Source: Parcubacteria bacterium GBS-2 (GTDB taxonomy: Bacteria > Patescibacteriota > Minisyncoccia > Minisyncoccales > GBS-2). From it: 64,000 bases of DNA. Positions 2,798 through 41,983 of the stretch are shown here, one piece after another. Each line of letters opens with the position of its first letter. Within the stretch, counting starts at the first letter, position 1. The position numbers and the translations under genes were made by a program. The stretch is from assembly GCA_001443025.1 (NCBI GenBank), contig LEKP01000004.1:27560-91559 (forward strand), read 5' to 3'. The notes beneath the pieces were generated by a model, which saw nothing but the letters and a program-made list of their open reading frames with translations, did no database searches and was not told the DNA's origin.

Positions 2798-2804
2798 AAA
2801 CTTT

Positions 2805-3116
2805 TGGAGATGGGGAGAATTGCACTCCCGTCCGGAAATTCCCCTTTACCAAATCTACGGGCCTAGTCAGTTTAAGGAAAACTGACAACCATCTAGAATA
2901 AATCTAAGATTAATTGTTAACAATCGAAAGTGCTTCCCTCGCTTAATATGACACCTGACACTGCCCGAGCGAGGACAGGCAGGCAGATGGCATTAGCAAT
3001 AAGCTAATGCAAGAGAAGGTTCGTTGGCATTAAATTTTGCTAGAAGTTTAAGGAGATTCTAGCAAACTCCGCCCGCATGGCAAAGGAGAAATTTCCGTCG
3101 ATTCTAATACATCCCC
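2805..3116 (-). ncRNA. ssrA: tmRNA (SsrA), 312 nt, CCA not encoded
   Basis: The minus strand reads 5'-GGGGATGTATTAGAATCGACGGAAAT...GGACGGGAGTGCAATTCTCCCCATCTCCA-3'. The acceptor stem GGGGATG/CATCTCC has the G3:U alanine identity pair. There is a T-arm GGGAG-TGCAATT-CTCCC. A candidate tag ORF GCC AAC GAA ... TAA lies at 3028-2993. The gene is adjacent to smpB. Confidence 0.93.
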
Positions 3117-3120
3117 ATCC

Positions 3121-3205
3121 CTAGCCACCCAGCAAGCCACCCCCCAGCACCCAGAAAACCAGCTAACCAGCACCCAGAAAACCAGATAACCAGCTAACCA
3201 GCAAA
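3121..3205 (-). repeat. CCAG-periodic (7-8 nt) spacer between the smpB stop and the tmRNA 5' end
   Basis: The plus strand reads cacccag|aaaaccag|ctaaccag|cacccag|aaaaccag|ataaccag|ctaaccag. The 15-mer cacccagaaaaccag occurs twice (3148-3162, 3171-3185). The tract is much more C-rich than its surroundings. Confidence 0.8.
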
Positions 3206-3652
3206 CTAATACTCTCTTAGTGCTCTTTGAATTTCTCTTTCTATTTCTCTTTTTTTGATCAATTCCTTCTTTTCAACTTTTTTTCTTACCTTCCCCAATC
3301 CAAATTCCAATTTTATTTTCCCATTTTTAGTATAAACTTTTAATGGTACCAAAGTCAAGCCTTTTTGTTTTGACTTTCCAATTAAATATTTGATTTCAGA
3401 CTTTTTTAGCAAAAGCTTTCTATCCCTTTGCGGGTTATAACTTCCTCCAATGTTTTTTGGTTGCCAAGGCGGAATATTTGCTCCAACCCAGAATGCCTCT
3501 TCCCCTTTTATTACCACATAAGTTCCTGCTAAATTCGTTCCCCAAGCCTTAAGGGACTTTACTTCTTGCCCAAAAAGAGAAATTCCCGCCTCAAATTTTT
3601 CCAAAATTTCAAAATTAAAATGTGCTTTTTTATTTTCTGCCAAAATTCTCAT
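3206..3652 (-). CDS. smpB: SsrA-binding protein SmpB
   Basis: 148 aa with NKKAHFNFEILEKFEAGISLFGQEVKSLK and NPQRDRKLLLKKSEI, both typical SmpB signatures. It lies immediately upstream of ssrA. Confidence 0.95.
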   Translation of the reverse strand: MRILAENKKAHFNFEILEKFEAGISLFGQEVKSLKAWGTNLAGTYVVIKGEEAFWVGANIPPWQPKNIGGSYNPQRDRKLLLKKSEIKYLIGKSKQKGLTLVPLKVYTKNGKIKLEFGLGKVRKKVEKKELIKKREIEREIQRALREY

Positions 3653-3686: not shown

Positions 3687-5405
3687 TTGATGAAAGAAAA
3701 AATTAAAAAAACCCTCGAAGATTCAGTTAAGACTCTTTTCCCCGGCATAAAAATTCAAAAATTTCAAATTGAGCACCCAGAGAGAAAAGAGCTAGGAGAT
3801 TACTCGACAAATTTAGCTTTTTTAATTGCTAAAGAGTTAAAAGAAAAACCGATTGAAATAGCAAATCGAATCGCAACCTCGGTTAAGAAAGAAAAAATCT
3901 TTGAAAGAGTTGAAGTTAAAGAACCTGGTTTTATAAATTTTTTCTTTTCTTTAGATTTTTTCTTTAAAGAGTTAAAAAAGATTTTTAAAAAGAAAGAAAA
4001 TTACGGAAAAAGCAAAATTGGAAAAGGAAAAACAGTTATAATTGATTACTCTTCGCCAAACATTGCAAAACCTTTTGGAATCGGACATTTAAGATCCACA
4101 ATCATTGGCCAAGCCCTCTACAACCTTTACAAATTCCTAGGCTATAAAGTTATCGGGGACAATCATTTGGGAGATTGGGGAACCCAATTTGGAAAATTAA
4201 TCTTTGCAATAAAAAAATGGGGAAAAAAGAAAATTGATGATTATTCAGTTAATGAGTTAGAGGAGCTTTACGTGAAATTTCATAAAGAGGCAGAAAAAAA
4301 CCCTCAATTGGAAGAGGAAGGAAGGAAATGGTTTAAAAAATTAGAAGAGGGCGAAAGAGAAGCGAGGAAAATTTGGAAAACTTTAGTTAAAATCTCCTTA
4401 AAGGAATTTGAAAGAATTTATAATCTTTTGGGGGTTAAATTTGATGTAGTTTTGGGAGAGAGCTTTTATGAACCGATGCTAAAAGAAATAATCGAAGAAT
4501 TGAAAAAGAAAAAAATTGCAAAAGAAAGTCAGGGAGCGCTAATAATTGAATTTCCAAATAATGAATTCCCTCCAGTAATTGTTCAAAAATCTGATGGGAC
4601 GACAACTTATTTCACAAGAGATTTAGCAACAATAAAATACAGACTGAAAAGATGGAATCCAGATTTGATAATTTATGAAGTTGGAGTAGATCAGAAATTG
4701 CATTTTCAGCAACTTTTCAAGACAGTAGAGATTTTAAGATGGACTAAAAAAACAAAGTTCGTTCACGTTGCACATGGTTTGTATAGGACCAAAACTGGAA
4801 AATTCTCCACAAGAAAAGGAGAAACTGTCCATTTAGAAGATGTATTAAATGAGGCAATTGAAAGAGCAAGAGAAATCATTGAAAAGTCTGAAACCTCTCG
4901 GGGTTTAACAGAAAAGGAAAAAGAAAAAATTTCCAAAATTGTTGGGATTGGAGCAGTAAAATATAATGATCTTTCTCAGCACCCATCAAAAGACATAGTT
5001 TTTGATTGGGGGAAAGTTTTGAATTTGAAAGGAAATTCCGCTCCTTATTTACAATACACTTTTGTGAGATGCCAGAGCGTTTTGAGGAAGGCTAAAAAAT
5101 CACAAATTGAAAATTGTAAATTGCGAATCGAAAAGTTAAAGAAAGAAGAGATTGAGATTTTAAGAGAGATTTATAAGTTCCCAGAAATAGTCCAAGATGC
5201 AGCAGAAAAATTTTCTCCAAATTTGATTTGTAACTTTGTTTTTGAGTTAGCTAGAAATTATAACTTTTTTTACGATATATACCCTATTTTAAAGGCAGAG
5301 GACAAAGAAATAAAAAATTTTAGACTTCTTTTAACAAAGGCGGTTGCGCAAATTATCCAGAATTCATTATTTCTTTTAGGAATTGAAGTTCCAAAGAGAA
5401 TGTAA
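3687..5405 (+). CDS. argS: Arginyl-tRNA synthetase
   Basis: IDYSSPNIAKPFGIGHLRST (HIGH region), DGTTTYFTRDLA, and a C-terminal DALR-type anticodon-binding region ending in M. The start is probably the ATG at 3690. Confidence 0.95.
   Translation: MMKEKIKKTLEDSVKTLFPGIKIQKFQIEHPERKELGDYSTNLAFLIAKELKEKPIEIANRIATSVKKEKIFERVEVKEPGFINFFFSLDFFFKELKKIFKKKENYGKSKIGKGKTVIIDYSSPNIAKPFGIGHLRSTIIGQALYNLYKFLGYKVIGDNHLGDWGTQFGKLIFAIKKWGKKKIDDYSVNELEELYVKFHKEAEKNPQLEEEGRKWFKKLEEGEREARKIWKTLVKISLKEFERIYNLLGVKFDVVLGESFYEPMLKEIIEELKKKKIAKESQGALIIEFPNNEFPPVIVQKSDGTTTYFTRDLATIKYRLKRWNPDLIIYEVGVDQKLHFQQLFKTVEILRWTKKTKFVHVAHGLYRTKTGKFSTRKGETVHLEDVLNEAIERAREIIEKSETSRGLTEKEKEKISKIVGIGAVKYNDLSQHPSKDIVFDWGKVLNLKGNSAPYLQYTFVRCQSVLRKAKKSQIENCKLRIEKLKKEEIEILREIYKFPEIVQDAAEKFSPNLICNFVFELARNYNFFYDIYPILKAEDKEIKNFRLLLTKAVAQIIQNSLFLLGIEVPKRM
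5102..5136 (+). repeat. Heptanucleotide-periodic tract inside argS
   Basis: ACAAATT GAAAATT GTAAATT GCGAATC GAAAAGT, encoding QIENCKLRIEK. 19/23 identical to the leuS tract. Confidence 0.8.
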
Positions 5406-7407: not shown

Positions 7408-10400
7408 ATGGAAATTAATTTTCCAAAACTTGAAGAGAAAATTTTGAGATTTTGGAAGAAAAATAGGATTTTCGAGAAATCGATTGAAAAGAGGAGAAAA
7501 GATTTTGTATTTTATGAAGGTCCTCCGACTGCTAATGCGAAGCCGGGATTACATCATGTATTGAGTAGAGTCTTCAAAGATATAGTTTGCCGTTATAAAA
7601 CAATGGCAGGCTTTAGAGTTTTAAGAAAAGCAGGATGGGATACTCATGGATTGCCAGTTGAATTAGAAATAGAAAAGAAAATTGGAACAAAAACAAAAAA
7701 GGATATTGAAAAATTTGGAATAGAAAAATTCAATTTTTTGTGCAAAAAATCGGTATGGGAATACAAAAAAGATTGGGAAAAATTAACTGAAAGAATTGGT
7801 TTTTGGCTAGATTTGAAAAATCCTTACATTACTTATGAACCGGAATACATTGAATCAGTTTGGTTTTTATTGAAGAAAATTTATGAAAAGGGGCTATTGT
7901 ACGAAGAACTTAAAGTTTCACCCTATTGTCCTCGATGCCAGACAATTTTGTCTTCTCATGAAGTTGCCCAGGGATACAAAAGAATAAAAGAACCTGCAAT
8001 TTATGTAAAATTTAGAGTTTTAAATCCAGAGTACAAAAATTGTTCTCTTTTAGTTTGGACGACAACTCCTTGGACATTGCCAGGAAATGTTGCAATAGCA
8101 GTAAATCCAAATTTTGATTATTTATTTTTAGAAAAAGAGGGAGAAATTTTGATTTTGGCAAAAGAAAGGACAAAGGCATTGGGAATTGAAGGAAAGGTTT
8201 TAAAAGAGGTAAAGGGGAAAGATTTAATTGGTTTGAGATACCAGTCAGTTTTTGATTTTTATCAACCAGATTTTGAAAAAGAAAGAATTTGGGAGGTTTT
8301 GGGAGCAGAGTTTGTATCTTTGGAAGAGGGTACAGGATTGGTTCATATTGCTCCTGCTTTTGGTGAAGAAGATATGGAATTAATAAAAACTCAAAACTCA
8401 AAATTCAAAACTCAAAATCAGAAGAAATTTCCGGTGATTTTGAATGTTGATGAGGAAGGAAGGTTCAAATTAGAGGTTAAAAAGTTTGCGGGCCTTTTTG
8501 TGAAAGATGCAGATTCCCTGATAATTCAAGATCTGAAAGAAAGAGGACTTTTGTTTAAAGAAGAATTATATGAACACGATTATCCATTTTGTTGGAGATG
8601 TAAAACCCCTCTTTTGTATTATGCGAAAAGAAGTTGGTTTATAAGAATGAGTCAAGTAAAAGAAGATTTAATTAAAAACAACGAAAAAATAAATTGGATT
8701 CCAGAGCACATAAAAGAAGGAAGATTCGGTGAATGGTTGAGAGAAATAAAAGATTGGGCTTTATCAAGAGAAAGATATTGGGGTACTCCTTTACCAGTTT
8801 GGAAATGCGCAAACTGTAACAATATAGAAGTAATTGGGTCGATTAAAGAATTGATCTTAAAAAACTCTTCAAAAAACGTTTATTATCTTTTCAGGCACGG
8901 ACACTCTTTAAGACAGGAAATGAAAGTTATCTCTTGTTGGCCAGAAGAAAAACCTCTCACTTTAACTGAAAAAGGAAAAGAAGAGGTAAAAAGAGCAGCG
9001 CTTGAGTTAAAGAAGGAAAAAATTGATTTGATTTTTTCCTCAGATTTAATGAGAACAAAACAAACTGCTGAAATTTTAGCCAAAGAGTTAAAGGTAAGAG
9101 TTATTTTCGATAAGCGATTAAGGGAATTTAATGTTGGAATTTTTAACGGAAAGGATCCTTCTTTGTTTTGGGAGTACATTAAGGACAAAAAAGATCCGCT
9201 TTTTGTAAAAGCGCCGAGAGGAGAAAGCTTGGCTGATGTAAGAAAAAGAATGTATGAATTTTTGAGAAATAAAGAAAAGAAGTTTTCTGGGAAAAAAATT
9301 CTTCTTGTATCTCACGAACTTCCCTTAACTATTCTAGAAGGAACCTTAAAAGGACTTTCGTTGGAAGAAATCTTGGAAAAAAGAAGAAGCGGTAAATTTA
9401 AAACCTTAAAAACTGCTCAATGGAAGAAAGTAGAATTCAAAAGTTTACCTTTCAATGAAAAAGGGGAAATTGATCTTCACCGTCCTTTCATTGATGAAGT
9501 TTCTTTTAAATGTTCAGTTTGTCAAGGCGAAATGAAACGAACTCCAGAAGTAATCGATTGTTGGTTTGATTCTGGAGCAATGCCTTTTGCTCAGTACCAC
9601 TGGCCGTTTTCTGAAATTCCAAAATCCAAGCTCCAAACTCAAAAATTAAAACCGCCAAAGTTATTCCCCGCAGATTACATTTGTGAAGGAATAGATCAAA
9701 CAAGGGGTTGGTTTTATACTCTTTTGGCTATTTCCACCTTAATGGGATTTGGCCCTTCTTATAAAAACGTTATTTCTTTAGGGCACGTTTTGGATGAAAA
9801 AGGGGAAAAAATGTCAAAATCAAAGGGAAATGTGGTTGATCCTTGGTATGTTATTCAGAAGTATGGCACCGAAGCAACAAGATGGTATTTTTTCACTATT
9901 AATCAACCAGGAAATCCCAAACTTTTTTCTGAAAAAGATGTGGCTGAAAGTTTTAAAAGATTTATTTTAACTTTTTGGAACTGTTATTTATTCTTTGATA
10001 CTTACGGAGAAAAGAAAGTTATCGCTACTTCAAGATCGAAGAATGTTTTAGACAGATGGATCATTTCGGAGTTAGAGAGTCTCATTCAAGAAGTATCTGA
10101 AAGTTTGGAAAAATACCACATTACCAAAGCAGCAAGAGTGATTGAAAAATTTGTGGTTGATGATCTTTCGTTGTGGTATATCCGTAGATCAAGAAAAAGA
10201 TTTCAGAAACCAAAAACTCAAAGAGAACTAAAAGAGGCTTCCCAAACTTTGAAATTTGTCTTTTTGAATTTATCAAAAATTTTAGCCCCGTTTTTGCCAT
10301 TTCTATCGGAATTTATTTATCAAAAGATTAAAGGATACAATTTTAAAAGTTCAAATTCTGTCCATTTGGAAAATTGGCCTAAAGTTAATGAAAAACTGAT

Positions 10401-10950
10401 TGATAAAAGGTTAGAAGAAAAGATGGAAAAAGTAAGAAACATTACCTCTTTAGCATTAGCAGAAAGACAAAAAGCAAGAATAAAAGTAAGACAACCATTG
10501 AGCGAATTACAGATTAACGAGACTCAGTTAAAAGATGAAGTAGAGTTGTTAGAGTTAATAAAAGAAGAAGTTAATGTAAAGAAAATAAGCTTTGGAGAGA
10601 AAGTTAAATTAGATACCACAATTACTCCAGAATTAAAAGAAGAAGGAATATTAAGAGAGATAATTCGGCATATTCAGGAAATGAGAAAAGAGTTAAGGTT
10701 AAAACCAAGAGATAAAATTTCAGTTGGGTATTTTGGCGAAGAAGCTATTTCAAAAATTCTAGAAAAAAATAAACAAAATTTCTTGAAAGAGGCGAGGGTT
10801 TTTGATTTAAAAGAACAAGAGGGAGAATACGATTTAGAAAAAGAAATAAAGGTCGACAACAAAAAAATAATCTTGGCAATTAAAAAGATAAATGCAAAAC
10901 ATTCCTCCACCAATTCAACCAAGACCAAAAGCCCCAGAAAGACCTCCTGA
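7408..10950 (+). CDS. ileS: Isoleucyl-tRNA synthetase (type 2-like) carrying an internal ~190 aa extra domain
   Basis: PPTANAKPGLHHV (HIGH), the editing domain WTTTPWTLPGN, zinc knuckles CWRCKTP and CANCNN, KMSKSKGN, and ICEGIDQTRGWFY. At 1180 aa it is about 150-200 aa longer than I expect for this type. Confidence 0.95.
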   Translation: MEINFPKLEEKILRFWKKNRIFEKSIEKRRKDFVFYEGPPTANAKPGLHHVLSRVFKDIVCRYKTMAGFRVLRKAGWDTHGLPVELEIEKKIGTKTKKDIEKFGIEKFNFLCKKSVWEYKKDWEKLTERIGFWLDLKNPYITYEPEYIESVWFLLKKIYEKGLLYEELKVSPYCPRCQTILSSHEVAQGYKRIKEPAIYVKFRVLNPEYKNCSLLVWTTTPWTLPGNVAIAVNPNFDYLFLEKEGEILILAKERTKALGIEGKVLKEVKGKDLIGLRYQSVFDFYQPDFEKERIWEVLGAEFVSLEEGTGLVHIAPAFGEEDMELIKTQNSKFKTQNQKKFPVILNVDEEGRFKLEVKKFAGLFVKDADSLIIQDLKERGLLFKEELYEHDYPFCWRCKTPLLYYAKRSWFIRMSQVKEDLIKNNEKINWIPEHIKEGRFGEWLREIKDWALSRERYWGTPLPVWKCANCNNIEVIGSIKELILKNSSKNVYYLFRHGHSLRQEMKVISCWPEEKPLTLTEKGKEEVKRAALELKKEKIDLIFSSDLMRTKQTAEILAKELKVRVIFDKRLREFNVGIFNGKDPSLFWEYIKDKKDPLFVKAPRGESLADVRKRMYEFLRNKEKKFSGKKILLVSHELPLTILEGTLKGLSLEEILEKRRSGKFKTLKTAQWKKVEFKSLPFNEKGEIDLHRPFIDEVSFKCSVCQGEMKRTPEVIDCWFDSGAMPFAQYHWPFSEIPKSKLQTQKLKPPKLFPADYICEGIDQTRGWFYTLLAISTLMGFGPSYKNVISLGHVLDEKGEKMSKSKGNVVDPWYVIQKYGTEATRWYFFTINQPGNPKLFSEKDVAESFKRFILTFWNCYLFFDTYGEKKVIATSRSKNVLDRWIISELESLIQEVSESLEKYHITKAARVIEKFVVDDLSLWYIRRSRKRFQKPKTQRELKEASQTLKFVFLNLSKILAPFLPFLSEFIYQKIKGYNFKSSNSVHLENWPKVNEKLIDKRLEEKMEKVRNITSLALAERQKARIKVRQPLSELQINETQLKDEVELLELIKEEVNVKKISFGEKVKLDTTITPELKEEGILREIIRHIQEMRKELRLKPRDKISVGYFGEEAISKILEKNKQNFLKEARVFDLKEQEGEYDLEKEIKVDNKKIILAIKKINAKHSSTNSTKTKSPRKTS
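8386..8420 (+). repeat. Heptanucleotide-periodic tract inside ileS (first)
   Basis: AAAACTC AAAACTC AAAATTC AAAACTC AAAATCA, encoding KTQNSKFKTQNQ. Confidence 0.85.
8866..9462 (+). other. Histidine-phosphatase superfamily (PGAM-like, branch 1) domain inserted in-frame within ileS
   Basis: Motifs in order: YYLFRHGHS (RHG), LTEKGKEEV, IFSSDLMRTKQTAEILA, DKRLREFNVGIFNG, APRGESLADVRKRMYEFL, ILLVSHELPLTIL. The insert is flanked by the IleRS segments WKCANCNNIEVIGS and IDLHRPFIDEV...VIDCWFDSG. Confidence 0.8.
9615..9656 (+). repeat. Heptanucleotide-periodic tract inside ileS (second)
   Basis: AATTCCA AAATCCA AGCTCCA AACTCAA AAATTAA AACCGCC, encoding IPKSKLQTQKLKPP. Confidence 0.8.
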
Positions 10951-11281
10951 AAGAAAACCGTCACTTTTTAACTCGAAAGGCTACATAGAGAGAAAATTTT
11001 TTGAAAGAGAATTTCGAGAAGATAAGTATTATGAAAAATGGAGAATTTCTCAAAAAGAAAGAGAAGAAATAGGAAGAACTATAGGGCAGCTTTTTGGAGA
11101 GCTAATAGGAAAGTCGGAAGAGACTAAAATACTTTCTTTGGCAGAAAGACTTCAAAAAGGAGAGTACTATTTACCTCCAGACGAAAAAATTAAAAAAGCA
11201 GCAGACGAAATTATTAAGAAATATGGTCGCGAAAAGGCTCAGGTGATTGGTAAAACTCTAAAAGAACTTCTCGGAAAATAA
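10892..11281 (+). CDS. Hypothetical small charged protein with a Pro-rich N-terminus
   Basis: 129-aa ORF that overlaps the ileS 3' end by 59 nt. No recognisable motif. Confidence 0.45.
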   Translation: MQNIPPPIQPRPKAPERPPERKPSLFNSKGYIERKFFEREFREDKYYEKWRISQKEREEIGRTIGQLFGELIGKSEETKILSLAERLQKGEYYLPPDEKIKKAADEIIKKYGREKAQVIGKTLKELLGK

Positions 11282-11284
11282 GAA

Positions 11285-12007
11285 ATGTTCCTTCGCTATC
11301 GAACTTTAGGATTTGTTTTTAAAAAGGAAGATAAAGGAGAGGCAGACCAGATTTTTAAAATTTTTACAAAAGATTTTGGAAAAGTTGAAGTCCTAGCAAA
11401 AGGAATCAGAAAAATTTCTTCAAAACTAAGGCCTCAAATCGACATTTTTTATCTTTCTGAAATTGAATTTATTCAAGGAAAAATCTATAAAAGATTGATC
11501 GGTGCTTTCTGTGTTGAAAAGTTTAAAAACTTAAGAAGAAGTTTTAAAAGGCTATCAATTGCTTATCAAACTTGCGAAGCTTTGGATAAATTGATAAAAG
11601 GAGAGGAGAAAGATGAAAGAATTTGGAAATTAATCTTGGAAGTTTTCATAAGTTTGGATAAAGAGAAATTTAAGGTTTGTAGTCTTGTTTATTTTTATTT
11701 TTTCTGGAAACTTGCTTCAATTTTAGGTCACAAACCAGAACTTTACTTTTGTTGCGGTTGCCAAAAAAGACCAGAGTTAAAGAAAGTGTATTTTAACCCG
11801 GGAGAAGGAGGTATAATCTGTCAAACTTGCTTTTCAAGAATAAAACAAGGAGAGGAGGTTAGCCAGAATTTAATTAAAATTTTGAGAATAATTTTAGAAA
11901 AAAACCTCGAGTTTCTGAAAAAAGTGAAGGCTAGAGAGAAGGTTGTTGAAGAGTTAAAGGAAATTTCAAATTCTTATTTCTTGTTTTTAACTCAAAACAA
12001 TGTTTAG
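11285..12007 (+). CDS. recO: DNA repair protein RecO
   Basis: OB-fold N-terminus (GFVFKKEDKGEADQIFKIFTKDFGKVEVLAKGIRK) and a Cys4 zinc motif CCGC...CQTC. Confidence 0.85.
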   Translation: MFLRYRTLGFVFKKEDKGEADQIFKIFTKDFGKVEVLAKGIRKISSKLRPQIDIFYLSEIEFIQGKIYKRLIGAFCVEKFKNLRRSFKRLSIAYQTCEALDKLIKGEEKDERIWKLILEVFISLDKEKFKVCSLVYFYFFWKLASILGHKPELYFCCGCQKRPELKKVYFNPGEGGIICQTCFSRIKQGEEVSQNLIKILRIILEKNLEFLKKVKAREKVVEELKEISNSYFLFLTQNNV

Positions 12008-18898: not shown

Positions 18899-20329
18899 AT
18901 GAAAAGAAAATTTTATGTTACAACTGCGATAGATTACGTAAACGATAGAGTTCATTTGGGTCATTCTTTAGAAAAAATTCAGGCTGATGTTTTAGCAAGA
19001 TATCATCGGATATTAGACGATGACGTTTTTTTCTTAACAGGGACAGATGAAAATGCTCAAAAGAATGTTTTGGCAGCTGAAAAGGAAGGAATTTCACCCA
19101 AAGAATTTGTTGACCAAAACGCAAATTTTGCAAAAACACTTTGGAAAAAATTTAACATTTCTTTTAACTATTTTGTTCGAACTACCAACAAACGAATCCA
19201 TTGGCCAGGGGTAAAAAAACTTTGGTTAAAATGCAAAGAAAGTGGGGATATTTACAAAAAAAATTACACTGGATTTTATTGCTTAGGTTGTGAAGCCTTT
19301 TTAAGAGAAACAGATTTAAAAAATGGTCTTTGCCCTTATCATCTTAAAAAACCAGAAATAATTTCAGAAGAAAACTATTTTTTTCGACTTTCAAGGTATC
19401 AAAAGGATTTAGAAAAAATAATCGAGAAAGACGAAATTGAAATTTTCCCTAGAGAAAGGAAAAATGAAATTTTAAATTTCGTTAAGTCGGGGTTGGAGGA
19501 CTTTAGTATTTCAAGACCGAGAGAAAGAATGAGAGGATGGGGAATTCCAGTGCCAAACGACAAATCTCAGATAATTTATGTTTGGTTTGACGCTTTAACA
19601 AATTATATTTCAGCAATAGGCTATGGAAGAGATGAAAAGCTTTTTAAGAAATATTGGCCAGCAGACTTACACATTATTGGAAAAGATATTTTGAAGTTTC
19701 ATGCAGTCTATTGGCCTGCAATGCTTCTTTCTGCAAAACTTGAACTTCCAAGAAAAATTTTAGTTCACGGATTTATCACTGTCGCAGGGCAAAAAATGTC
19801 AAAAAGCTTAGGAAATGTTATTAATCCTTTAGAGATAATTGAAAAATATGGAACAGATTCCTTAAGGTATTTTCTTTTGAGAGAATCTCCTCCTTTCGAA
19901 GATTTAGATTTTACCTTAGAAAAATTTAAAAAAAGATATAATTCAGATTTAGCCACAGGAATTGGGAATTTGGTGTTGAGAGTAATAGGTTTAGCAAACA
20001 AACTTAAATTTTCAAACTCAAAACCGAAAATCAAGGATCAAAAATTAAAATCAGAAATTGCGAAAACAAAAAGGGCATGGAAAAAATCTTTAGAAGAATT
20101 TAGATTCAACGAATCTTTGGCGATTGTTTGGAGTTTAATTTCTTTCTGTGACAAATTTCTTCAAGAAAAGAAACCATGGGAAACAAAAGAAAAAAAAGTT
20201 GTTTCTGATTTAATAACCGCATTGGCAGAGATTGCAAAATTAATTGAGCCATTTCTGCCAGAAACTTCAGAAAAAATTTTGAAACAAATAAAGAATAAAA
20301 AACCAATAGTTCTCTTTCCAAAAGCTTGA
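18899..20329 (+). CDS. metG: Methionyl-tRNA synthetase (short form, without the C-terminal tRNA-binding domain)
   Basis: YVTTAIDYVNDRVHLGHSLE (HIGH-like), zinc knuckle CLGC...CPYH, and GQKMSKSLGN. Confidence 0.93.
   Translation: MKRKFYVTTAIDYVNDRVHLGHSLEKIQADVLARYHRILDDDVFFLTGTDENAQKNVLAAEKEGISPKEFVDQNANFAKTLWKKFNISFNYFVRTTNKRIHWPGVKKLWLKCKESGDIYKKNYTGFYCLGCEAFLRETDLKNGLCPYHLKKPEIISEENYFFRLSRYQKDLEKIIEKDEIEIFPRERKNEILNFVKSGLEDFSISRPRERMRGWGIPVPNDKSQIIYVWFDALTNYISAIGYGRDEKLFKKYWPADLHIIGKDILKFHAVYWPAMLLSAKLELPRKILVHGFITVAGQKMSKSLGNVINPLEIIEKYGTDSLRYFLLRESPPFEDLDFTLEKFKKRYNSDLATGIGNLVLRVIGLANKLKFSNSKPKIKDQKLKSEIAKTKRAWKKSLEEFRFNESLAIVWSLISFCDKFLQEKKPWETKEKKVVSDLITALAEIAKLIEPFLPETSEKILKQIKNKKPIVLFPKA
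20014..20055 (+). repeat. Heptanucleotide-periodic tract inside metG
   Basis: AAACTCA AAACCGA AAATCAA GGATCAA AAATTAA AATCAGA, encoding NSKPKIKDQKLKSE. Confidence 0.75.
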
Positions 20330-20344
20330 GATTAAAATATAAAC

Positions 20345-22822
20345 ATGAAATACTCTCCTCAAAAAATTGAAAGAAAGTGGCAAAAAATTTGGGAGAGAAA
20401 GAAAATTTATAAAACCAAAGATGTCCAAAAAAAGTCAAAGTTTTATTGTTTGGACATGTTTCCCTATCCTTCAGGGGCAGGTCTTCATGTTGGCCATTTG
20501 CGAGGTTACATTGCTACCGATGTAATTTCGAGGATGAAAATGATGCAAGGTTTTAACGTTTTGCATCCAATGGGTTGGGATGCTTTTGGATTGCCAGCTG
20601 AAAACTATGCAATTCAACACAAAATTCACCCCGAAGTTGCAGTAAGGCGGAACATCAAAAATTTTAAAAAACAACTTTCAAAAATTGGATTCACTTACGA
20701 TTGGGAAAGGGAAATTAATACTACTGACCCTACTTATTACAAATGGACCCAATGGATTTTTTTACAGCTGTTTAAAGCAGGTTTAGTTTATGAAAGCTTC
20801 GAACCTATAAATTGGTGTCCTTCTTGCAAAACGGGTTTGGCAAACGAAGATCTAGAAAGGGGAAGATGCGAAAGATGTGGATCAAGGGTTGAAAAAAGAC
20901 CGCTTAGGCAATGGGTAATAAAAATTACAAAGTATGCTGATAGGCTTTTAAAAGATTTAAAGTATTTGAATTGGCCAGAACACATTGTAAAAATGCAAAA
21001 AGATTGGATTGGGAAATCTGAGGGAGTTGAATTTGAAATGAAGGTTTTCAAAGGAAAAAGAGAACTCAAAGAAAAAATCAAAATTTTCACAACCAGGATC
21101 GATACTGTTTTCGGAATGACTTATGTCGTTTTAGCTCCAGAAAATAAGATTTTGGAAAAGATAAAAGATAAAATTGAAAACTGGAAGGAAATTGAAAAGT
21201 ACAAAAAAGAAGTAGAGGCAAAACTGGTTGAAGAAAGAGAAAAAGAGAAAACTGGAATTAAAATTAAAGGAATTTTAGCCGAAAATCCTTTTAATAAAGA
21301 AAAGGTTCCAATTTTTGTCTCAGAGTATGTCCTGGCAGATTATGCAACAGGATCGGTAATGGGAGTCCCTGCCCATGATAAAAGAGATTTTGAATTTGCA
21401 AAAAAATTCAATCTGCCAATAAGGAAAGTAATTGAGGGAGGGCAAAAAGAAGGGGAATGTTATGAAGGGGAAGGAATTTTGGTAAATTCTGGAGAGTTTT
21501 CAGGATTGAACTCAACTCAGGCAAAAGAGAAAATGGCTCAATGGTTAAAAGAAAGAAAAATTGGAGGAAAAAAGGTTTATTACAAAATCAGAGATTGGGT
21601 TTTTGCAAGACAAAGATACTGGGGAGAGCCATTTCCATTAGTTTTTTGCGAAAATTGTAAAAAGAAAATTTTAGAAGGGAAATATAAAAAAGGAGAATTC
21701 AACAAAGGAGAATTATTAAACCCTGGCTGGATTTGCGTTCCAGAAAAAGAGCTTCCGGTTAAGCTTCCAAAAGTTAAATATTATGAGCCCACTGGGACTG
21801 GAGAATCCCCTCTAGCAAAAATTGAAAAATGGGTAAAAACAAAATGTCCAAAATGCGGTTTTGTTGCAAGAAGGGAAACAAACACAATGCCACAGTGGGC
21901 AGGATCTTGTTGGTACTATTTGAGATATATTGATCCTAAGAATAAGAGAGAATTAATTTCAAAGAAAAAAGAAAAGTATTGGATGCCAGTTGATTTATAT
22001 GTTGGGGGAGTAGAACACGCCACTAGACATTTAATCTACGCCAGATTTTGGCATAAATTCTTGTACGATATTGGAGTAATTTCAACAAAAGAGCCCTTTC
22101 TGAGATTAAGATCGGTTGGCGTGATTTTGGGCCCAGATGGAAGAAAAATGTCAAAAAGATATGGTAACGTTGTTAATCCAGACGATGTTTGTAAAAAACT
22201 CGGAGCAGATTCCCTGAGAGTTTACGAAATGTTTATGGGACCTTTTGATCAAGAAATCACTTGGCAAGAAAGAGGAGTAGTTGGAGCTAGGAGATTTTTA
22301 GAAAAGATTTGGAAATTAAAATCAAAGATTGTGAATTGTAAATTGCAAATTGATAAAAGAAAGGAGATTTTGAAAATCTTACATCAAACCATAAAGAAAG
22401 TAACTGAAGATATTGAAACTTTTAAATTTAATACCGCAATTTCTCAATTAATGGTTTGTGCAAATAGAATTGAAAAAGAAGAGAAAATAGAAAAAGAAAT
22501 TTTTGAAAACTATTTGAAACTTTTAGCACCATTTGCTCCTCATATTGCAGAAGAAATCTGGCAAATTTTAGGACATAAAAAGTCGATATTTTTAAGTCCG
22601 TGGCCAAAATGGAATAAGAAGTTGGTGAAAGAAGAAATGATTACTTTAATAATTCAAGTTAATGGAAAGGTGAGAGATAAAATTGAAGTCGAAGCTAGCG
22701 TTTCAGAAGAAAAGGCGAAAGAATTAGCCTTTTCTAGTGAAAAAATCAAAAAGTGGATAGAAGGAAAAGAAATAAAAAAAGTCGTTTTTGTTCCTGGGAA
22801 ATTGATTAACCTAGTTGTATGA
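20345..22822 (+). CDS. leuS: Leucyl-tRNA synthetase
   Basis: FPYPSGAGLHVGHLRGY, zinc motifs CPSC...CERCGS, the CP1 editing domain, and GRKMSKRYGN. Confidence 0.96.
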   Translation: MKYSPQKIERKWQKIWERKKIYKTKDVQKKSKFYCLDMFPYPSGAGLHVGHLRGYIATDVISRMKMMQGFNVLHPMGWDAFGLPAENYAIQHKIHPEVAVRRNIKNFKKQLSKIGFTYDWEREINTTDPTYYKWTQWIFLQLFKAGLVYESFEPINWCPSCKTGLANEDLERGRCERCGSRVEKRPLRQWVIKITKYADRLLKDLKYLNWPEHIVKMQKDWIGKSEGVEFEMKVFKGKRELKEKIKIFTTRIDTVFGMTYVVLAPENKILEKIKDKIENWKEIEKYKKEVEAKLVEEREKEKTGIKIKGILAENPFNKEKVPIFVSEYVLADYATGSVMGVPAHDKRDFEFAKKFNLPIRKVIEGGQKEGECYEGEGILVNSGEFSGLNSTQAKEKMAQWLKERKIGGKKVYYKIRDWVFARQRYWGEPFPLVFCENCKKKILEGKYKKGEFNKGELLNPGWICVPEKELPVKLPKVKYYEPTGTGESPLAKIEKWVKTKCPKCGFVARRETNTMPQWAGSCWYYLRYIDPKNKRELISKKKEKYWMPVDLYVGGVEHATRHLIYARFWHKFLYDIGVISTKEPFLRLRSVGVILGPDGRKMSKRYGNVVNPDDVCKKLGADSLRVYEMFMGPFDQEITWQERGVVGARRFLEKIWKLKSKIVNCKLQIDKRKEILKILHQTIKKVTEDIETFKFNTAISQLMVCANRIEKEEKIEKEIFENYLKLLAPFAPHIAEEIWQILGHKKSIFLSPWPKWNKKLVKEEMITLIIQVNGKVRDKIEVEASVSEEKAKELAFSSEKIKKWIEGKEIKKVVFVPGKLINLVV
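22325..22359 (+). repeat. Heptanucleotide-periodic tract inside leuS
   Basis: AAGATTG TGAATTG TAAATTG CAAATTG ATAAAAG, encoding KIVNCKLQIDK. Confidence 0.8.
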
Positions 22823-25006: not shown

Positions 25007-26722
25007 ATGAAGGAAATTCTTTTAAACAAATCTGGTAAAAAAATTATCTTGTTAGGGAATGAAGCAGTTTGTCGGGGAGCCATTGAAGCTGGTGTTGACT
25101 TTGTTTCAACTTATCCTGGAACCCCTGCCTCAGAAATTGGTAATACCTTTTGGCAAATTAAAGAAGATTTCAAAAAAATAAATCCAAAATTTCATTTTGA
25201 ATTTTCAACTAATGAAAAGGTAGCGATGGAAGCAGCAGCTGGGGCTGCTATTTCTGGCTTTAAATCATTGGTTGCAATGAAGAATTTTGGCTTGAACGTT
25301 GCTTCAGATTTTTTATGCACTCTAATGTACTCTGGTATAGAGGGATCGATGGTAATTTTTGTTGCCGACGATCCTTCTTGCTGGAGCTCTGCTCAGTCTG
25401 AACAAAACACTAGATTTTATTCTTTGATGGCTCACATTCCAACTTTAGAACCTTCCGAACCTCAAGAATTCAAAGATTTTACAAAGTTTGCTTTCAACCT
25501 CTCTGCCCAATTTAAAATTCCAGTAATGATTAGATCTACTACCAGAGCCTCTCATCAATCAGGACCAGTCACCTTAGGGGAAATTCCAAATTCCAAATTC
25601 CAAATTCCAAAATTTGTTAAAGATCCAAAAAAATTCTCAACGATGCCTCCAAGGGTCTTGGAAATGAAAAAAGAGCTTTTTGAAAAAATTGAGAAAATTA
25701 AAAAACAATTTGAAAAATCTAATTTAAACAAGATAATTTACGGAAATTCAAGAGAAAAACTCGGAATTTTAACTTCAGGGGTTTCTTTCTTGTATGTAAT
25801 GGAGGCATTAAAGAAATTGAATTTAAAATTGCCGGTTTTAAAATTGGGATTTATCTATCCTTTACCAGAAAGAAAAATATTGAATTTTTTGAAAAAATTA
25901 AAATCTGTTTTAATTGTCGAAGAACTAGAGCCTTATTTAGAAAGGGAAATTGCAATTTTGGCAAAAAAAGAAAATTTAAAGATCAAAATCTTTGGGAAAG
26001 GAGAAAAAATTGAGGGAGGAAGAATTTGGAAAGAGAGAAAGGCAATTTTACCTCAAATTGGAGAGTTAAAACCTGAATATGTTGAGATCGCGATTTCAAA
26101 AATTTTGAACAAAAAACCATCCTTCAACTATCAATTGCATTTGAAAAAATTCGAAAAATTAAAAATACCAGCAAGACCTCCAATTTTGTGTCCAGGATGT
26201 CCCTATTGGGCAGTTGTTAATGCGATCAAAAAAGTTGTCGATCTTCAGAAAGTGATTTTTGGTGGAGAAATTGGTTGCTATATGCTTTTTTCTCACAAAG
26301 TAATTAACCTTCAAGATTATCTATATTGTATGGGTTCTTCGACTAGTATTGCCCACGGAATTTCAAAAACATCCAAACAAAAAGTCATCACTTTCATTGG
26401 CGATTCATCTTTTTTCCATGCTGGGATTCCTGCATTGATTAATACTGTTTTTAATCAATCAAATCCTTTAATCATTATTCTTGAAAATCAGACGACCGCG
26501 ATGACCGGCCATCAACCCCATCCTGGGGTAGGAGACGGTCGGGTAGTCAAAGTTGAAGAAATTGTTAGGGCTTGTGGAATAAAGAATGTTAAAGTAATAG
26601 ATCAAGTTAAAAATCCAGAAGAATTTGAGAAAGGATTAAAGGAGTTTTTAGAAAAAGACGAAGCTTCAGTAATTATTGCTAGGCACATTTGCGCTCTATT
26701 AGAAAAAAAGAAAAAAACATGA
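25007..26722 (+). CDS. iorA: Indolepyruvate (2-oxoacid):ferredoxin oxidoreductase, alpha subunit-like
   Basis: GNEAVCRGAIEAGVDFVSTYPGTPASEI, the TPP-binding region GDSSFFHAG...ENQTTAMTGHQP, and CPGCPY. Confidence 0.8.
   Translation: MKEILLNKSGKKIILLGNEAVCRGAIEAGVDFVSTYPGTPASEIGNTFWQIKEDFKKINPKFHFEFSTNEKVAMEAAAGAAISGFKSLVAMKNFGLNVASDFLCTLMYSGIEGSMVIFVADDPSCWSSAQSEQNTRFYSLMAHIPTLEPSEPQEFKDFTKFAFNLSAQFKIPVMIRSTTRASHQSGPVTLGEIPNSKFQIPKFVKDPKKFSTMPPRVLEMKKELFEKIEKIKKQFEKSNLNKIIYGNSREKLGILTSGVSFLYVMEALKKLNLKLPVLKLGFIYPLPERKILNFLKKLKSVLIVEELEPYLEREIAILAKKENLKIKIFGKGEKIEGGRIWKERKAILPQIGELKPEYVEIAISKILNKKPSFNYQLHLKKFEKLKIPARPPILCPGCPYWAVVNAIKKVVDLQKVIFGGEIGCYMLFSHKVINLQDYLYCMGSSTSIAHGISKTSKQKVITFIGDSSFFHAGIPALINTVFNQSNPLIIILENQTTAMTGHQPHPGVGDGRVVKVEEIVRACGIKNVKVIDQVKNPEEFEKGLKEFLEKDEASVIIARHICALLEKKKKT
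25582..25609 (+). repeat. Perfect (AATTCCA)x4 inside iorA
   Basis: Four exact tandem copies encoding IPNSKFQIP. The same 28-mer occurs at 48169-48196. Confidence 0.95.
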
Positions 26723-29351: not shown

Positions 29352-30719
29352 ATGAAAATTAACCCGCTTATTTTCAGAGCTTACGATATCAGGGGAATTT
29401 ATAAAAAAGATATCGACGAAAGTATTTTCAAAAAAATTGGTTTTGTTTTGGGAAAGAAAAATCAAAAATTTTTGGTTGGGCACGATATTAGAAAATCTGG
29501 AAGAAAATTGGCGATGGCATTGATTGAGGGATTGGTTACTACTGGATCAAGAGTTTTCTTTTGTGGAAAGTCTTCTTTTGGGCTCTGCTTTTTTTCAGGT
29601 TTTAAATTAAAAGTTGATAAAACTCTTTTTGTTACTGCCTCCCATTTACCAAAAGAGTGGAACGGCTTGAAAATAAATTATGGCGATGGAGAACCAGTTT
29701 CTTCAAAGGAAATCGAAAAAATAAGGGATAAAGTTTTGAAAATTGAAAAAAAAGAAATTAAATTTAAAAAACCAAAATTTAAAAAAGTTAACCTCAAAAG
29801 AGAATATTTTGAAACTCTTCTTGAAAAGTTCCCGCTCTTGAAAGAAAAAAAATTGAAAATTGTCTTAGATTGCGGAAACGGAGCTACTTCTCTGGTTGCT
29901 CCTCAAATATTTAAAAAATTCGGCTTTGAGGTTATTGAACTTTTTTGTCAACCTGATTCAAATTTCCCGAATAGAAATCCAGAACCTACTTTTGAGGCAA
30001 CCAGATTTTTAAGAGAAAGAGTTTTAAAAGAAAAAGCAGATTTTGGAGTAGCTTTTGATGGAGATGGAGACAGAGGAGTAATAATCGATGATAAAGGAAG
30101 ATATTTGAGTGGAAATCAAATCGGAATTATTTTGGGAAGGGATATTTTAAAGGAAACGAAAAATAAAAAAGTTGTTAGAACCGTTTCTTGCTCAATGGCG
30201 ATCGATGAGGAACTTAAAAGGTATGGATCAAAAATAATTGAGGTGCCGGTAGGCCATACTTTTGTAATTTCTGCGGTCAAAAGAAAAAAAGCAATTTTGG
30301 GGATTGAAGAATCAAGCCACATTGTTCTTCCTCGTTACTTTCTTTTTGATGATGCAATTTTAATCCCTCTTAGGATCGCTGAGATTTTAATAAAAGAAAA
30401 AAAGAAACTTTCAAAAATCGTTGATAAAATTAAAATTTATCCTTTTGAAGAAATCATTTTTGGATGTCCCGACGAGAAGAAATTTGAAGTTGTCAAAAGT
30501 TTAGCCAAAAAATTCAAAAAAGAATACAAAAATGTTAATACTTTAGACGGAGTAAAAGTAATTTTTAATTTTGGTTGGATTTTAATAAGAGCTTCCAATA
30601 CTTCTCCTAAAATTCGTCTCTACATTGAAGCGAAAAACGAAGGAAGGCTTAAATTCTTGAAGGAGAAATTTTCAGATATTTTAGGAGACTGGATAGCAAA
30701 AAATAGCAATCAAACATAA
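29352..30719 (+). CDS. Alpha-D-phosphohexomutase (phosphomannomutase/phosphoglucosamine mutase, archaeal-like)
   Basis: FRAYDIRG, phosphoserine loop VTASHLPKEWNGLK, metal loop GVAFDGDGDRGVI, GIEESSH, and RASNTSPKIR. Confidence 0.88.
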   Translation: MKINPLIFRAYDIRGIYKKDIDESIFKKIGFVLGKKNQKFLVGHDIRKSGRKLAMALIEGLVTTGSRVFFCGKSSFGLCFFSGFKLKVDKTLFVTASHLPKEWNGLKINYGDGEPVSSKEIEKIRDKVLKIEKKEIKFKKPKFKKVNLKREYFETLLEKFPLLKEKKLKIVLDCGNGATSLVAPQIFKKFGFEVIELFCQPDSNFPNRNPEPTFEATRFLRERVLKEKADFGVAFDGDGDRGVIIDDKGRYLSGNQIGIILGRDILKETKNKKVVRTVSCSMAIDEELKRYGSKIIEVPVGHTFVISAVKRKKAILGIEESSHIVLPRYFLFDDAILIPLRIAEILIKEKKKLSKIVDKIKIYPFEEIIFGCPDEKKFEVVKSLAKKFKKEYKNVNTLDGVKVIFNFGWILIRASNTSPKIRLYIEAKNEGRLKFLKEKFSDILGDWIAKNSNQT

Positions 30720-39565: not shown

Positions 39566-40136
39566 ATTTGTTAAATTCACTCATTGACTTCTCAGCTCCT
39601 TCTTTTATTGAAATCTCAATTGCTTTACACGTTAAATCAATTACCTTCTTTAAAATTTTTTCCTCTTTTTTACTAAATTTTTGAAGCACTAAATTTTTCT
39701 TATTGCTCTTTGCCCTATTGTTGGCTGTTCCAATTCCAACTCTAACCCTAACAAAATCTTTTGTTCCAATTTCATCAATTATTGATTGAACTCCTTTGTG
39801 GCCAGCAGATCCTCTGCCAAAAGAAATTTTAATTTTCCCAAATGGAATGTCCAAATCATCGTGAACCACTATTAAATTTTCACTTTTCAATTTCCAATTT
39901 TCAATTAAAAACTTTACCGATTTACCAGAATTGTTCATAAAAGTTTGAGGTTTTGCTAGAACAATCTTTTTTTCTCCAATTTTCTTTTCAGAAATCATTG
40001 CTAAAAACTCTTTTTTCAGTTTAAATTTTGGGAATTTTTTCTTCTTTGCAAACTCATCTAAAACCATAAATCCAAGGTTATGCCTCGTTTTTTCAAACTT
40101 TCTTCCTGGATTTCCAAGACCGACGATTAACTTCAT
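39564..40136 (-). CDS. pth: Peptidyl-tRNA hydrolase
   Basis: MKLIVGLGNPG..., TRHNLGF, and VVHDDLDIPFGKIK. Confidence 0.95.
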   Translation of the reverse strand: MKLIVGLGNPGRKFEKTRHNLGFMVLDEFAKKKKFPKFKLKKEFLAMISEKKIGEKKIVLAKPQTFMNNSGKSVKFLIENWKLKSENLIVVHDDLDIPFGKIKISFGRGSAGHKGVQSIIDEIGTKDFVRVRVGIGTANNRAKSNKKNLVLQKFSKKEEKILKKVIDLTCKAIEISIKEGAEKSMSEFNK

Positions 40137-40708: not shown

Positions 40709-41983
40709 ATGCCAAAACCAAAATTTCAAACTCCAAAAGGAATGCACGACATTTTTGGTGAAAATTGGAAGTACTTTGATAAGATTTTCGAGGTAGTTAA
40801 ATCTTTTGCTAAATTTTACAATTTTGAAAGAATTGAGACCCCGGTTTTGGAAGAAGCTGAACTTTTTACAAAAGGAATAGGATTGGCCACAGACATAGTC
40901 CAAAAAGAAATGTTTCTTTTGAAAACAAAAGGAGGCGATTATTTAGCTTTAAGGCCAGAAGGAACTGCCCCGGTTGTGCGAGCTTACATTCAACACGGAA
41001 TGCAAAACCTTCCACAGCCTGTTAAGCTTTGGTATTTTTCTCAATTTTTTAGGTACGAGCATCCCCAAGCTGGAAGATTTAGACAATTTTGGCAATTTGG
41101 ATTTGAGATTTTAGGAAAACAAGCTCCAGCACTAGACACGCAGATCATTTTAATTTTTTACAATATTTTAAAAGAATTAGGCTTTGAAGCCCTGGCTATT
41201 AAAATAAACAGCATCGGCGACAGTTTTTGTCGGCCATACTACAAAAAAACCCTGATTTCTTATTTGAAGCATAGATCTTATGCTTTATGCCCAGATTGCA
41301 AAAGAAGACTGAAAGAGAATCCTTTGAGAATTTTAGATTGCAAAGAGGAAAAATGCAGGCAGATTATTTCTGAAGCCCCTCAGATTTTGAATCATTTATG
41401 CGAAAATTGTAAAAACCATTTAAAGACAGTTTTAGAATTTTTAGACGATCTTCAACTTCCTTATCATTTAGACCCTTATTTAGTCAGAGGATTAGATTAT
41501 TACACAAAAACAGTTTTTGAAATTTCCGAAGAAACTGAAAAAGGAAAAGCAGTTGGAGCATTGGTCGGAGGAGGAAGGTACGACAACTTGGCAAAAATTT
41601 TGGGAGGCCTAGAAATGCCAGGAGTTGGAGGGGCGGGAGGGGTTGAAAGAATTATTGAGTTATTAAAAGAAAAGCGAATTAAAATTTACAAAGAAAAAAA
41701 ACCAAAAATATTTCTTGCTCAAATTGGTGATTTAGCAAAAAGAAAAGCTTTAAAGATAGTAGAAGAATTTAGGAAAGAAAATTTACCAATATACGAATCA
41801 ATCGAGAAAGATTCGCTAAAATCACAGATGAAATTAGCAGATAAACTTGGCGTCAAGTATGTTCTAATTTTAGGCCATCAGGAAGCGTTAAACGAGGAAA
41901 TTTTATTAAGAGATATGGAAACCGGGAAACAAAAGAAAATAAGGTTGAAAAATTTAATAAAAGAGGTTAAAAAATATTTGTAA
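40709..41983 (+). CDS. hisS: Histidyl-tRNA synthetase
   Basis: PKGMHDI, class II motifs LRPEGTAPVVRAY, FRYEHPQAGRFRQFWQFGFE and GGGRYD, plus an anticodon-binding domain. The ATG at 40709 follows the lepB stop and is preferred over the track start at 40679. Confidence 0.95.
   Translation: MPKPKFQTPKGMHDIFGENWKYFDKIFEVVKSFAKFYNFERIETPVLEEAELFTKGIGLATDIVQKEMFLLKTKGGDYLALRPEGTAPVVRAYIQHGMQNLPQPVKLWYFSQFFRYEHPQAGRFRQFWQFGFEILGKQAPALDTQIILIFYNILKELGFEALAIKINSIGDSFCRPYYKKTLISYLKHRSYALCPDCKRRLKENPLRILDCKEEKCRQIISEAPQILNHLCENCKNHLKTVLEFLDDLQLPYHLDPYLVRGLDYYTKTVFEISEETEKGKAVGALVGGGRYDNLAKILGGLEMPGVGGAGGVERIIELLKEKRIKIYKEKKPKIFLAQIGDLAKRKALKIVEEFRKENLPIYESIEKDSLKSQMKLADKLGVKYVLILGHQEALNEEILLRDMETGKQKKIRLKNLIKEVKKYL

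Follow-up and report, generated by a model that had tools for sequence, protein, structure and literature searches.

Heptamer repeats are, by the accounts of Mrazek et al. (2007) given in PMC4692102 and PMC4679880, the most abundant class of long simple sequence repeats (SSRs) in most prokaryotic genomes. In these accounts slippage of a polymerase with a footprint of about 7 nt is proposed as their cause, and units of a multiple of 3 are reported as those occurring in genes; the heptamer cases described there (GGGAATC in Xanthomonas, the short tandemly repeated repetitive (STRR) sequences of Nostoc and Calothrix, TAACTGA in Beggiatoaceae) are intergenic. Here we describe A-rich heptanucleotide tracts that lie in coding DNA. 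They were analysed in a 64,000-nt stretch (hereafter the window; positions 27,560 to 91,559 of contig LEKP01000004.1) of Parcubacteria bacterium GBS-2, a low-GC (33%) member of the Parcubacteria group of the Patescibacteria or candidate phyla radiation (CPR), with the tract at 8386-8420 of ileS, the isoleucyl-tRNA synthetase (IleRS) gene, as type case. We found no literature linking heptanucleotide, SSR or tandem repeats to CPR/Patescibacteria or to housekeeping coding regions. The coding, in-frame form of bacterial heptamer repeats is new, the intergenic form being already known.

With the long heptamer SSRs of prokaryotes these tracts share head-to-tail 7-nt units in few to several copies, a length beyond chance, a preference for period 7 over its neighbours, slippage as the proposed source and a copy number that differs between relatives at the same locus (here 1.4 versus 4.4 copies, 21 nt). 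Whereas those repeats are overwhelmingly intergenic, variable in length and built of one genome-specific unit, the present tracts are in frame in essential housekeeping genes, use many units per genome and have about 4.4 copies, with three-unit steps. The contingency loci of Haemophilus and Neisseria (tetra- and heptanucleotide repeats) are likewise SSRs within open reading frames (ORFs), with a unit that is not a multiple of 3 and a copy number altered by slippage. They differ in that one-unit frameshifts switch accessory or surface genes on and off, with many copies and strain variation; the tracts described here have IleRS, LeuRS, ArgRS, MetRS, TopA, Pth, PolX and IorA as hosts and occur in in-frame states only. 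Rickettsia palindromic elements resemble them as repetitive DNA tolerated in frame in surface loops of essential proteins, with passenger peptides. Those elements are palindromic, about 100-150 bp long and identical family-wide, with defined ends, in contrast to tandem, non-palindromic, locally seeded tracts of about 31 nt with many units and no fixed-length presence/absence. DNA uptake sequences (DUS of Neisseria, USS of Pasteurellaceae) are also short in-gene words at protein-tolerant sites which yield recurrent peptides, but consist of one conserved 9-12-mer at about one per kb, whereas the tracts have no single word; no uptake-like word was found among the top k-mers of the window.

Two tracts lie in ileS:

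8386-8420, + strand: heptanucleotide tract (AAAACTC twice, AAAATTC, AAAACTC, AAAATCA), IleRS residues 327-338, KTQNSKFKTQNQ; lag-7 identity 0.82
9614-9656, + strand: decayed mosaic heptanucleotide tract, IleRS residues 736-750, EIPKSKLQTQKLKP; lag-7 identity 0.66 (over 9615-9656)

The heptamers of the first are, letter for letter, those given in the original prediction, which had been made from the letters of the window alone. Tandem Repeats Finder (TRF) assigns it period 7, with 4.6 copies and 92% matches, and assigns the second tract period 7, with 4.4 copies and 79% matches. In alignments with solved structures, the peptide of the first tract lies in a 10-residue gap relative to T. thermophilus IleRS (1ILE), and that of the second aligns to gaps totalling 9 residues relative to 8C9D. 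Among 33 aligned CPR IleRS proteins, tracts lie in about seven variable loops, and the same loop carries different heptamers depending on the genome. The location in variable loops, as had been predicted, is thereby supported: because the tracts fall in gaps and variable loops, they do not align to conserved residues of distant orthologues.

The IleRS loops provide direct evidence for viable alleles that differ by three units, i.e. by seven codons. The closest relative found, L212 (IleRS 83% identical), carries a perfect (AAAACTC)4AAAAC at the site orthologous to 8386, from which the window departs by a single C-to-T change in unit 3. At this site L213 reads ATC AAAACTC AAAGC..., exactly 21 nt shorter than L212, and 27 of 30 nt match when one 21-nt gap is allowed. 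(The IleRS relatives cited by such handles are metagenome-assembled genomes labelled Nealsonbacteria, Pacebacteria, Minisyncoccales and similar.) Two further 21-nt allele pairs, L212 versus L214 and L037 versus L215, were found at the second loop, where the window tract is orthologous to a near-perfect AAATTCC tract in L037 and to an AAAACTC tract in L212. In a set of 120 IleRS homologues plus the window, the length of this second loop peaks at 11 residues (37 sequences) and at 18 residues (31 sequences), which together make up 68 of the 109 sequences matched; the first loop falls into length classes of 7, 10, 14 and 17 residues among the 120 homologues. Matched long and short loops include AQNQKSKIKNQKLKPPKL with AQDQKLRPPKL and IKTQNSKFKTQNQKK with IKTQSQKK. 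Only in-frame states were seen in the 120 homologues.

The first tract is common to the window, L005 and L047 and has decayed in L003, L004, L006 and L037. It is better conserved than its surroundings in three lineages, with 31 of 33 nt identical between the window and L005, whose IleRS proteins are only 64.5% identical. This keep-or-decay pattern is the one expected of a self-homogenising repeat; constraint could also produce it.

Other features of IleRS were observed along the way. Within the synthetase, the 1180-residue product of ileS (7408-10950) has a Pfam match to His_Phos_1 (PF00300), shared by nearly all relatives above 60% identity, which suggests from sequence that a phosphatase-like domain has been inserted. 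CPR IleRS proteins of shorter length (about 930-1020 residues) apparently lack it. GC-rich hairpin mini-inserts of about 27-45 nt lie in frame within heptamer tracts at L017:12611-12685 (for example CGCCGAGGCTTCGGCG), L045:8902-9000 and L050:7988-8077, in the IleRS loop at alignment columns 1084-1132. The insert of L045 is missing from its close relative L010, and IleRS loops of other relatives hold G/A/R-rich inserts of about 19 residues ('R[AV]SIYG[NS]EG..LFA'). The hairpin mini-inserts may represent another type of in-frame insertion at the tract loops. None was found when the window was searched for GC-rich hairpin inserts.

Period 7 stands out in the window as a whole. With strong tracts defined by at least 17 of 21 lag matches, eight were found at lag 7, against 0-2 at each other lag from 4 to 15, and triplet shuffles expect 0.03. 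When synonymous codons were shuffled with the proteins kept (58 kb of coding sequence), a mean of 1.49 lag-7 tracts was obtained, with a maximum of 4 in 200 shuffles; shuffling the codon order of the coding set gave 0.10. Since the lag-7 count exceeds that of the protein-preserving shuffles, the periodicity is a property of the DNA beyond peptide constraint. The tracts hold their period by means of the rare codons TTC, TCC and AAC.

The remaining tracts and candidates of the window are the following:

784-825, + strand: heptanucleotide tract in polX, PHP domain region (AATACGC twice, AATACGA twice, AATTCCG, AATTCTA); lag-7 identity 0.83
5104-5134, + strand: imperfect tract in argS (IENCKLRIEK), unit AAATTGN; lag-7 identity 0.75
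20012-20058, + strand: weak tract with indels in metG (SNSKPKIKDQKLKSE); lag-7 identity 0.63 (over 20014-20055)
21156-21183, + strand: short tract in leuS (KIKDKIENW), unit AAAAGAT; lag-7 identity 0.81
22328-22357, + strand: imperfect tract in leuS (IVNCKLQID), unit AAATTGN
25581-25611, + strand: perfect (AAATTCC)4AAA tract in iorA, the gene of indolepyruvate:ferredoxin oxidoreductase alpha subunit (EIPNSKFQIPK)
34050-34079, - strand: decayed AAATTCC-type tract in topA (KKFQAPNSKSQ); lag-7 identity 0.70
39872-39907, - strand: imperfect tract in pth (IENWKLKSEN), unit AATTGAA
48168-48198, + strand: perfect (AAATTCC)4AAA tract in the gene of a glycoside-hydrolase-like protein (KFQIPNSKFQ)
60888-60915, + strand: weak intergenic tract, AACAATA-like, directly upstream of the ATG at 60914; lag-7 identity 0.76
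40709-40740, + strand: borderline candidate at the start of hisS (MPKPKFQTPKG), not counted as established; lag-7 identity 0.52, p=0.02
39035-39065, - strand: candidate in mfd, not of period 7; lag-7 identity 0.38, best lag 11
29757-29800: candidate in the phosphohexomutase gene, not of period 7; lag-7 identity 0.43, best lag 9

Pfam confirmed PolX, ArgRS, IleRS, MetRS, LeuRS, indolepyruvate:ferredoxin oxidoreductase alpha, the glycoside-hydrolase-like protein, TopA, Pth and Mfd as host genes. Eleven of the 12 tracts in the window are coding, every one of them in the host frame, as had been claimed, and A-rich on the coding strand. Besides 8386, TRF reports period-7 arrays of at least four copies at 783, 5104, 9614, 22328, 25581, 34050, 39875, 48168, 59183 and 60888; the one at 59183 was rejected as a heptamer tract, its best lag being 6. 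The period-7 assignments first made for polX and for both ileS sites hold, while that for metG stands in weak form only (TRF gives it period 6 and a low score). Checked singly, the tracts in argS, leuS (both), iorA, topA, pth and the glycoside-hydrolase-like gene, which the list of the original prediction did not include, are of period 7 as well. Of the weaker candidates proposed with them, hisS is borderline and those of mfd and the phosphohexomutase fall away.

Dozens of Patescibacteria genomes show the same signal. Species-representative genomes contributed 80 loci centred on IleRS, in which 46 lag-7 tracts were counted, nearly all in Patescibacteria; no other period reached more than 9. 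The 1.25 Mb from related Patescibacteria contain 88 tracts. The syntenic relatives L208-L211 have 2-5 lag-7 tracts each, and L212, L213, L214 and L215 have 7, 2, 0 and 7; at other lags from 4 to 12, L208-L214 gave one lag-12 match each in L211 and L214, three lag-8 matches in L212 and otherwise none. At a GC content of at most 0.36, CPR loci hold 26 tracts in 357 kb versus one in 143 kb of non-CPR loci (P=0.0014), an approximately 10-fold higher density. In the related loci, 36 of 37 tracts are within long ORFs. A genome-wide process at the DNA level rather than independent low-complexity evolution, as originally proposed, is therefore supported by the specificity for period 7, by the excess over protein-preserving shuffles and by this recurrence.

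Tracts have a characteristic size. The lengths of exact period-7 runs decay from 14 nt but rise again in a second, distinct peak at 31-32 nt, which corresponds to four complete units and the initial 3-4 nt of another, and such a second mode is unique to period 7 among the periods compared. The terminal partial unit would be the remnant expected from a seed of one unit flanked by a microhomology of 3-4 nt. The units themselves are diverse, with at least 49 different canonical units among the 88 tracts and many units per genome. A scan of metagenomes with three AAATTCC units as query retrieved, in low-GC contigs, in-frame AAATTCC tracts in genes for P-type ATPase, AlaRS, RecJ, MetRS, Mur ligases, PGK, MiaA, MoeA and IorA; AAATTCC arrays exceeding 46 nt in length (47-166 nt) were confined to regions outside long ORFs. 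Longer coding forms of related units were also seen. The metG region of L209 (2405-2467) orthologous to the window tract is a 63-nt AAAATTC tract containing 6- and 8-nt units, which grows from a conserved AAATTCAAAAT seed, and uvrA of L212 (18361-18435) holds an in-frame compound tract of 75 nt, (GAAATTC)4GAAA followed by C(AAATTCC)3.9. States above 4.4 copies therefore exist in essential genes.

In low-GC Patescibacteria, the tracts lie within surface loops of conserved proteins, and at fixed loops (glycoside-hydrolase-like protein, IorA, TopA, LeuRS, Pth) their units turn over, or evolve in concert. In the glycoside-hydrolase-like protein the peptide of the tract belongs to a low-confidence loop between two helices of an AlphaFold model (low predicted local distance difference test (pLDDT) score; mean pLDDT of the model 85). 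Distant relatives have an ancestral non-repeat form of this loop, and relatives at 70-96% identity have at least six heptamer-derived forms: KFQIPNSKFQ, QKSKVKSK, QNSKLKSQ, IQNSKFK, NQKSKIKDQK and KCQIANAKCQ. In five genomes of about 84% nucleotide identity, the TopA loop carries AAATTCC (window, L208), GGAAGTA (L210) or AAAAATC (L211) between conserved flanks. The LeuRS loop carries AAATTGN or GGAAGTA (the site of 22328 has a GGAAGTA-type tract in L208, L210 and L211), and the IorA loop AAATTCC (perfect also in L209, with 1-2 substitutions in L208 and L211) or, in L210, AAGTTGG. The argS site of L212 has a near-perfect AAATTGC tract of about five units. At the Pth loop L084 is without a tract, and L086 has a CGAACAT/CTAACAT tract in a loop 5 residues longer. 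Between tract and non-tract forms, net changes in length are 0, +1, +2, +5, +7 or +10 residues; the IorA loop, for instance, exceeds distant orthologues by just one residue.

As a side observation, the units GGAAGTT and GGAAGTA of L210 (iorA, 10001-11725, and the loops of topA, leuS and dprA) are 1-2 substitutions from GGAATTT, the reverse complement of AAATTCC, which is the unit of the relatives of L210 at the iorA and topA loops; the L210 tract may have been inverted in place. The presence of AAATTCC four times in the window and of GGAAGTW four times in L210 had also suggested a genome-specific preference for units, as would come from a shared template, ectopic copying or a mobile family. 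This was rejected: pairs with a unit distance of at most 1 amount to 0.12 within genomes versus 0.167 between genomes (permutation P=0.92).

Two observations speak for a filter on outcomes, namely the restriction of long AAATTCC arrays to regions outside long ORFs and the form of tracts whose units include a stop codon. Units containing TGA or TAG occur in imperfect tracts only, with the in-frame stop position altered. The would-be in-frame TGA is TGT in argS and TGG in pth, and W or C accordingly occurs in IENWKLK, IENCKLR and IVNCKLQ; GGAAGAA or GGAAGGA stands beside GGAAGTA. A typical tract is an A-rich 7-mer run that is stop-free in all three reading phases. A 7-mer repeat encodes one cyclic heptapeptide in all three phases. 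AAATTCC yields KFQIPNS, AAAACTC yields KTQNSKL and AAAATTC yields KIQNSKF, and the recurrent N-S-K-x-Q/K peptides are best read as passengers of these related units. Neither the DNA nor the peptide of the tracts showed evidence of a function of its own in this analysis, and the tracts are probably not functional elements in themselves.

We propose, at a probability of about 0.62, that the tracts are frame-locked heptanucleotide microsatellites in coding DNA, which arise by slippage in a 7-nt register and of which selection retains those that are in frame and free of stops. Of the options originally considered, slippage-prone seeds fit best, with same-locus alleles that differ by exactly three units (21 nt); we infer that slippage is the molecular event and that selection imposes the three-unit quantum. 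The seed would be a local quasi-repeat of 10-11 nt, i.e. one unit plus 3-4 nt of flanking microhomology, and units would be added and removed through misalignment, in a 7-nt register, while the DNA is replicated or repaired. Because 7 is not a multiple of 3, essential genes would retain only three-unit changes (21 nt, 7 residues) or events netting a multiple of 3, and loops would toggle between about 1.4 and about 4.4 copies. Re-expansion after a contraction would reset all units to one sequence, which would account for perfect tracts at old sites and for differing units at one loop in close relatives, and point substitution would erode tracts between expansion events.

Several observations weigh against frame-locked slippage, or against its sufficiency. 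The birth of a tract without frameshifted intermediates, from a 1.4-copy seed (for example AAATTCCAAA) to 4.4 copies, is an unexplained step: we know of no documented mechanism for a single-step gain of three units from such a seed, and alleles of 2.4 or 3.4 copies were absent from the IleRS loops examined. The near-identical contigs L001, L002 and L083 carry identical tracts, without copy-number variation. Many tract and non-tract forms differ by 0, +1, +2 or +5 residues and not by 7, so that some events look like replacement (a deletion plus an insertion); pure +21-nt expansion was rejected as sole route, many loops differing by 0-5 residues. In the metagenome sample, the 31-33-nt mode of AAATTCC arrays is present outside long ORFs too, and frame selection may not be the only cause of the 4.4-copy size. 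Expansion is seen for units of the form A3-4 plus (T/C/G)(T/C)C but not for abundant stop-free, purine-only seeds such as AAAGAAGAAA. There is no general lag-7 bias in 2287 polarised substitutions from five-genome alignments, and templated point substitution at lag 7 was rejected, the gain/loss ratio at this lag (0.94) being close to that at lags 4, 5 and 10 (0.92-0.93). Finally, the unusually strong conservation of the 8386 tract could also reflect constraint.

The birth step, the replacement-type lengths, the size outside ORFs, the unit bias and the absent point-substitution bias are the reasons for which templated repair is retained as a rival, albeit an unlikely one. It would involve a dedicated or lineage-specific synthesis that, at DNA breaks or gaps, replaces the prior sequence by a heptamer-periodic patch of about 31-32 nt, with in-frame, stop-free products kept; PolX, a primase-polymerase or a reverse transcriptase could, for example, carry out such fill-in reiteratively. 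Loop replacement at near-zero net length, unit families swapped between relatives of about 90% identity with flanks intact, a size of about 4.4 copies outside ORFs too, a unit bias beyond seed abundance, the roughly 10-fold enrichment in low-GC CPR loci and a PolX encoded in the window all speak for it. However, no candidate enzyme is tied to the tracts, the units are not genome-specific, which disfavours a genome-carried template, exact 21-nt allele pairs are predicted by plain misalignment between repeats, and heptamer arrays occur in many unrelated bacteria. Much less probable still is a small mobile or selfish element that inserts in frame and of which the tracts would be copies, comparable to Rickettsia palindromic elements or to the GC clusters of yeast mitochondria. 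The window does hold two copies of the identical 31-mer (AAATTCC)4AAA, many unrelated genes elsewhere contain it in frame, and in relatives the same loops admit GC-rich hairpin mini-inserts. But an insert of 31-32 nt would disrupt the reading frame, net lengths vary from 0 to +10 residues with no fixed insert, and neither fixed ends or flanks nor target duplications are present. Seeds are moreover local conserved codons, as in MetRS, and the units are too many and no more alike within than between genomes; the short insertion element of the original prediction is disfavoured on these grounds.

A selected nucleic-acid signal (DNA uptake sequence, protein-binding array, or mRNA site for pausing or for a cold-shock-type protein) had likewise been put forward, and we consider it highly improbable. 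It is true that ComEC, DprA and RecO are encoded in the window, that CspB is said in PMC4679880 to bind heptamer repeats with one protein per heptamer, and that the 8386 tract outconserves its surroundings. Yet there are many rare units and no single motif, the top 10-12-mers of the window are ordinary low-complexity words with none over-represented in the manner of an uptake sequence, tracts sit only where the protein is tolerant and decay freely in sister lineages, and contracted alleles of about 1.4 copies are viable. We give just as little credit to peptide selection, or to ordinary drift of low-complexity loops in AT-rich genomes, with the DNA periodicity as a side effect. The abundance of K, N, S and Q in the loops is what AT-rich genomes predict, and synonymous shuffles retain 1.5 lag-7 tracts, above other lags; the eight observed tracts nevertheless exceed all 200 protein-preserving shuffles, rare codons maintain the period, the effect is exclusive to period 7, and different units give unrelated peptides (KFQIPNS, NYELRIT, QDTRYKI). 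An artefact of assembly or sequencing, in the form of collapsed longer repeats, can practically be set aside. Although 31 nt is a common k-mer size, the same tracts appear across MEGAHIT k141, SPAdes, IDBA, Logan and Joint Genome Institute (JGI) assemblies of different samples, coding tracts are all in frame with a long conserved ORF on either side, and orthologous tracts carry lineage-specific substitutions.

Read as frame-locked microsatellites, the tracts would be a natural case of frame constraint on a microsatellite, in which a repeat unit indivisible by 3 is maintained in essential genes through three-unit steps only. They would provide an origin for some short lineage-specific loop insertions in CPR housekeeping proteins, loci suited to testing the idea that a 7-nt polymerase footprint favours heptamers in prokaryotes, and markers for strain or lineage typing in metagenomes; mistaken for functional motifs, they can mislead alignments, domain boundaries and analyses of selection. 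A more far-reaching possibility, to which we attach little weight, is that Patescibacteria have a distinctive polymerase or repair activity whose stuttering in a 7-nt register produces patches of about 31 nt and continually rewrites fixed surface loops of essential proteins. If so, the rewritten loops would double as landing pads for the GC-rich hairpin mini-inserts and would be an unrecognised source of lineage-specific protein insertions in CPR, possibly with a built-in clock or marker of strain evolution.

Some observations lie outside coding tracts. In-frame AAATTCC in high-GC genomes, which would have implied insertion of foreign DNA, was considered and rejected, since the matches are intergenic arrays. 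In high-GC soil contigs (GC 0.64-0.69; for example L141, L167, L185, L163, L142, L198 and L100) these are AT-rich and have conserved flanks, with the form cacgc-ATTCC(AAATTCC)3-taattcc; inverted GAATTCG/GGAATTT arrays often accompany them, their position is directly upstream of start codons, and the L167 array precedes an ORF whose product starts like GluRS. They resemble the known intergenic heptamer repeats. In L212, a large ORF with Intein_splicing and Peptidase_S74 matches (positions 1-1218 of the contig) lies beside the syntenic block, where the window has no counterpart. In the window, a 23-nt direct repeat (CCAGCACCCAGAAAACCAGATAA, 2.7 copies, 90% matches) occupies 3144-3206, between the transfer-messenger RNA (tmRNA) gene (2802-3116, - strand) and smpB (3206-3652, - strand).

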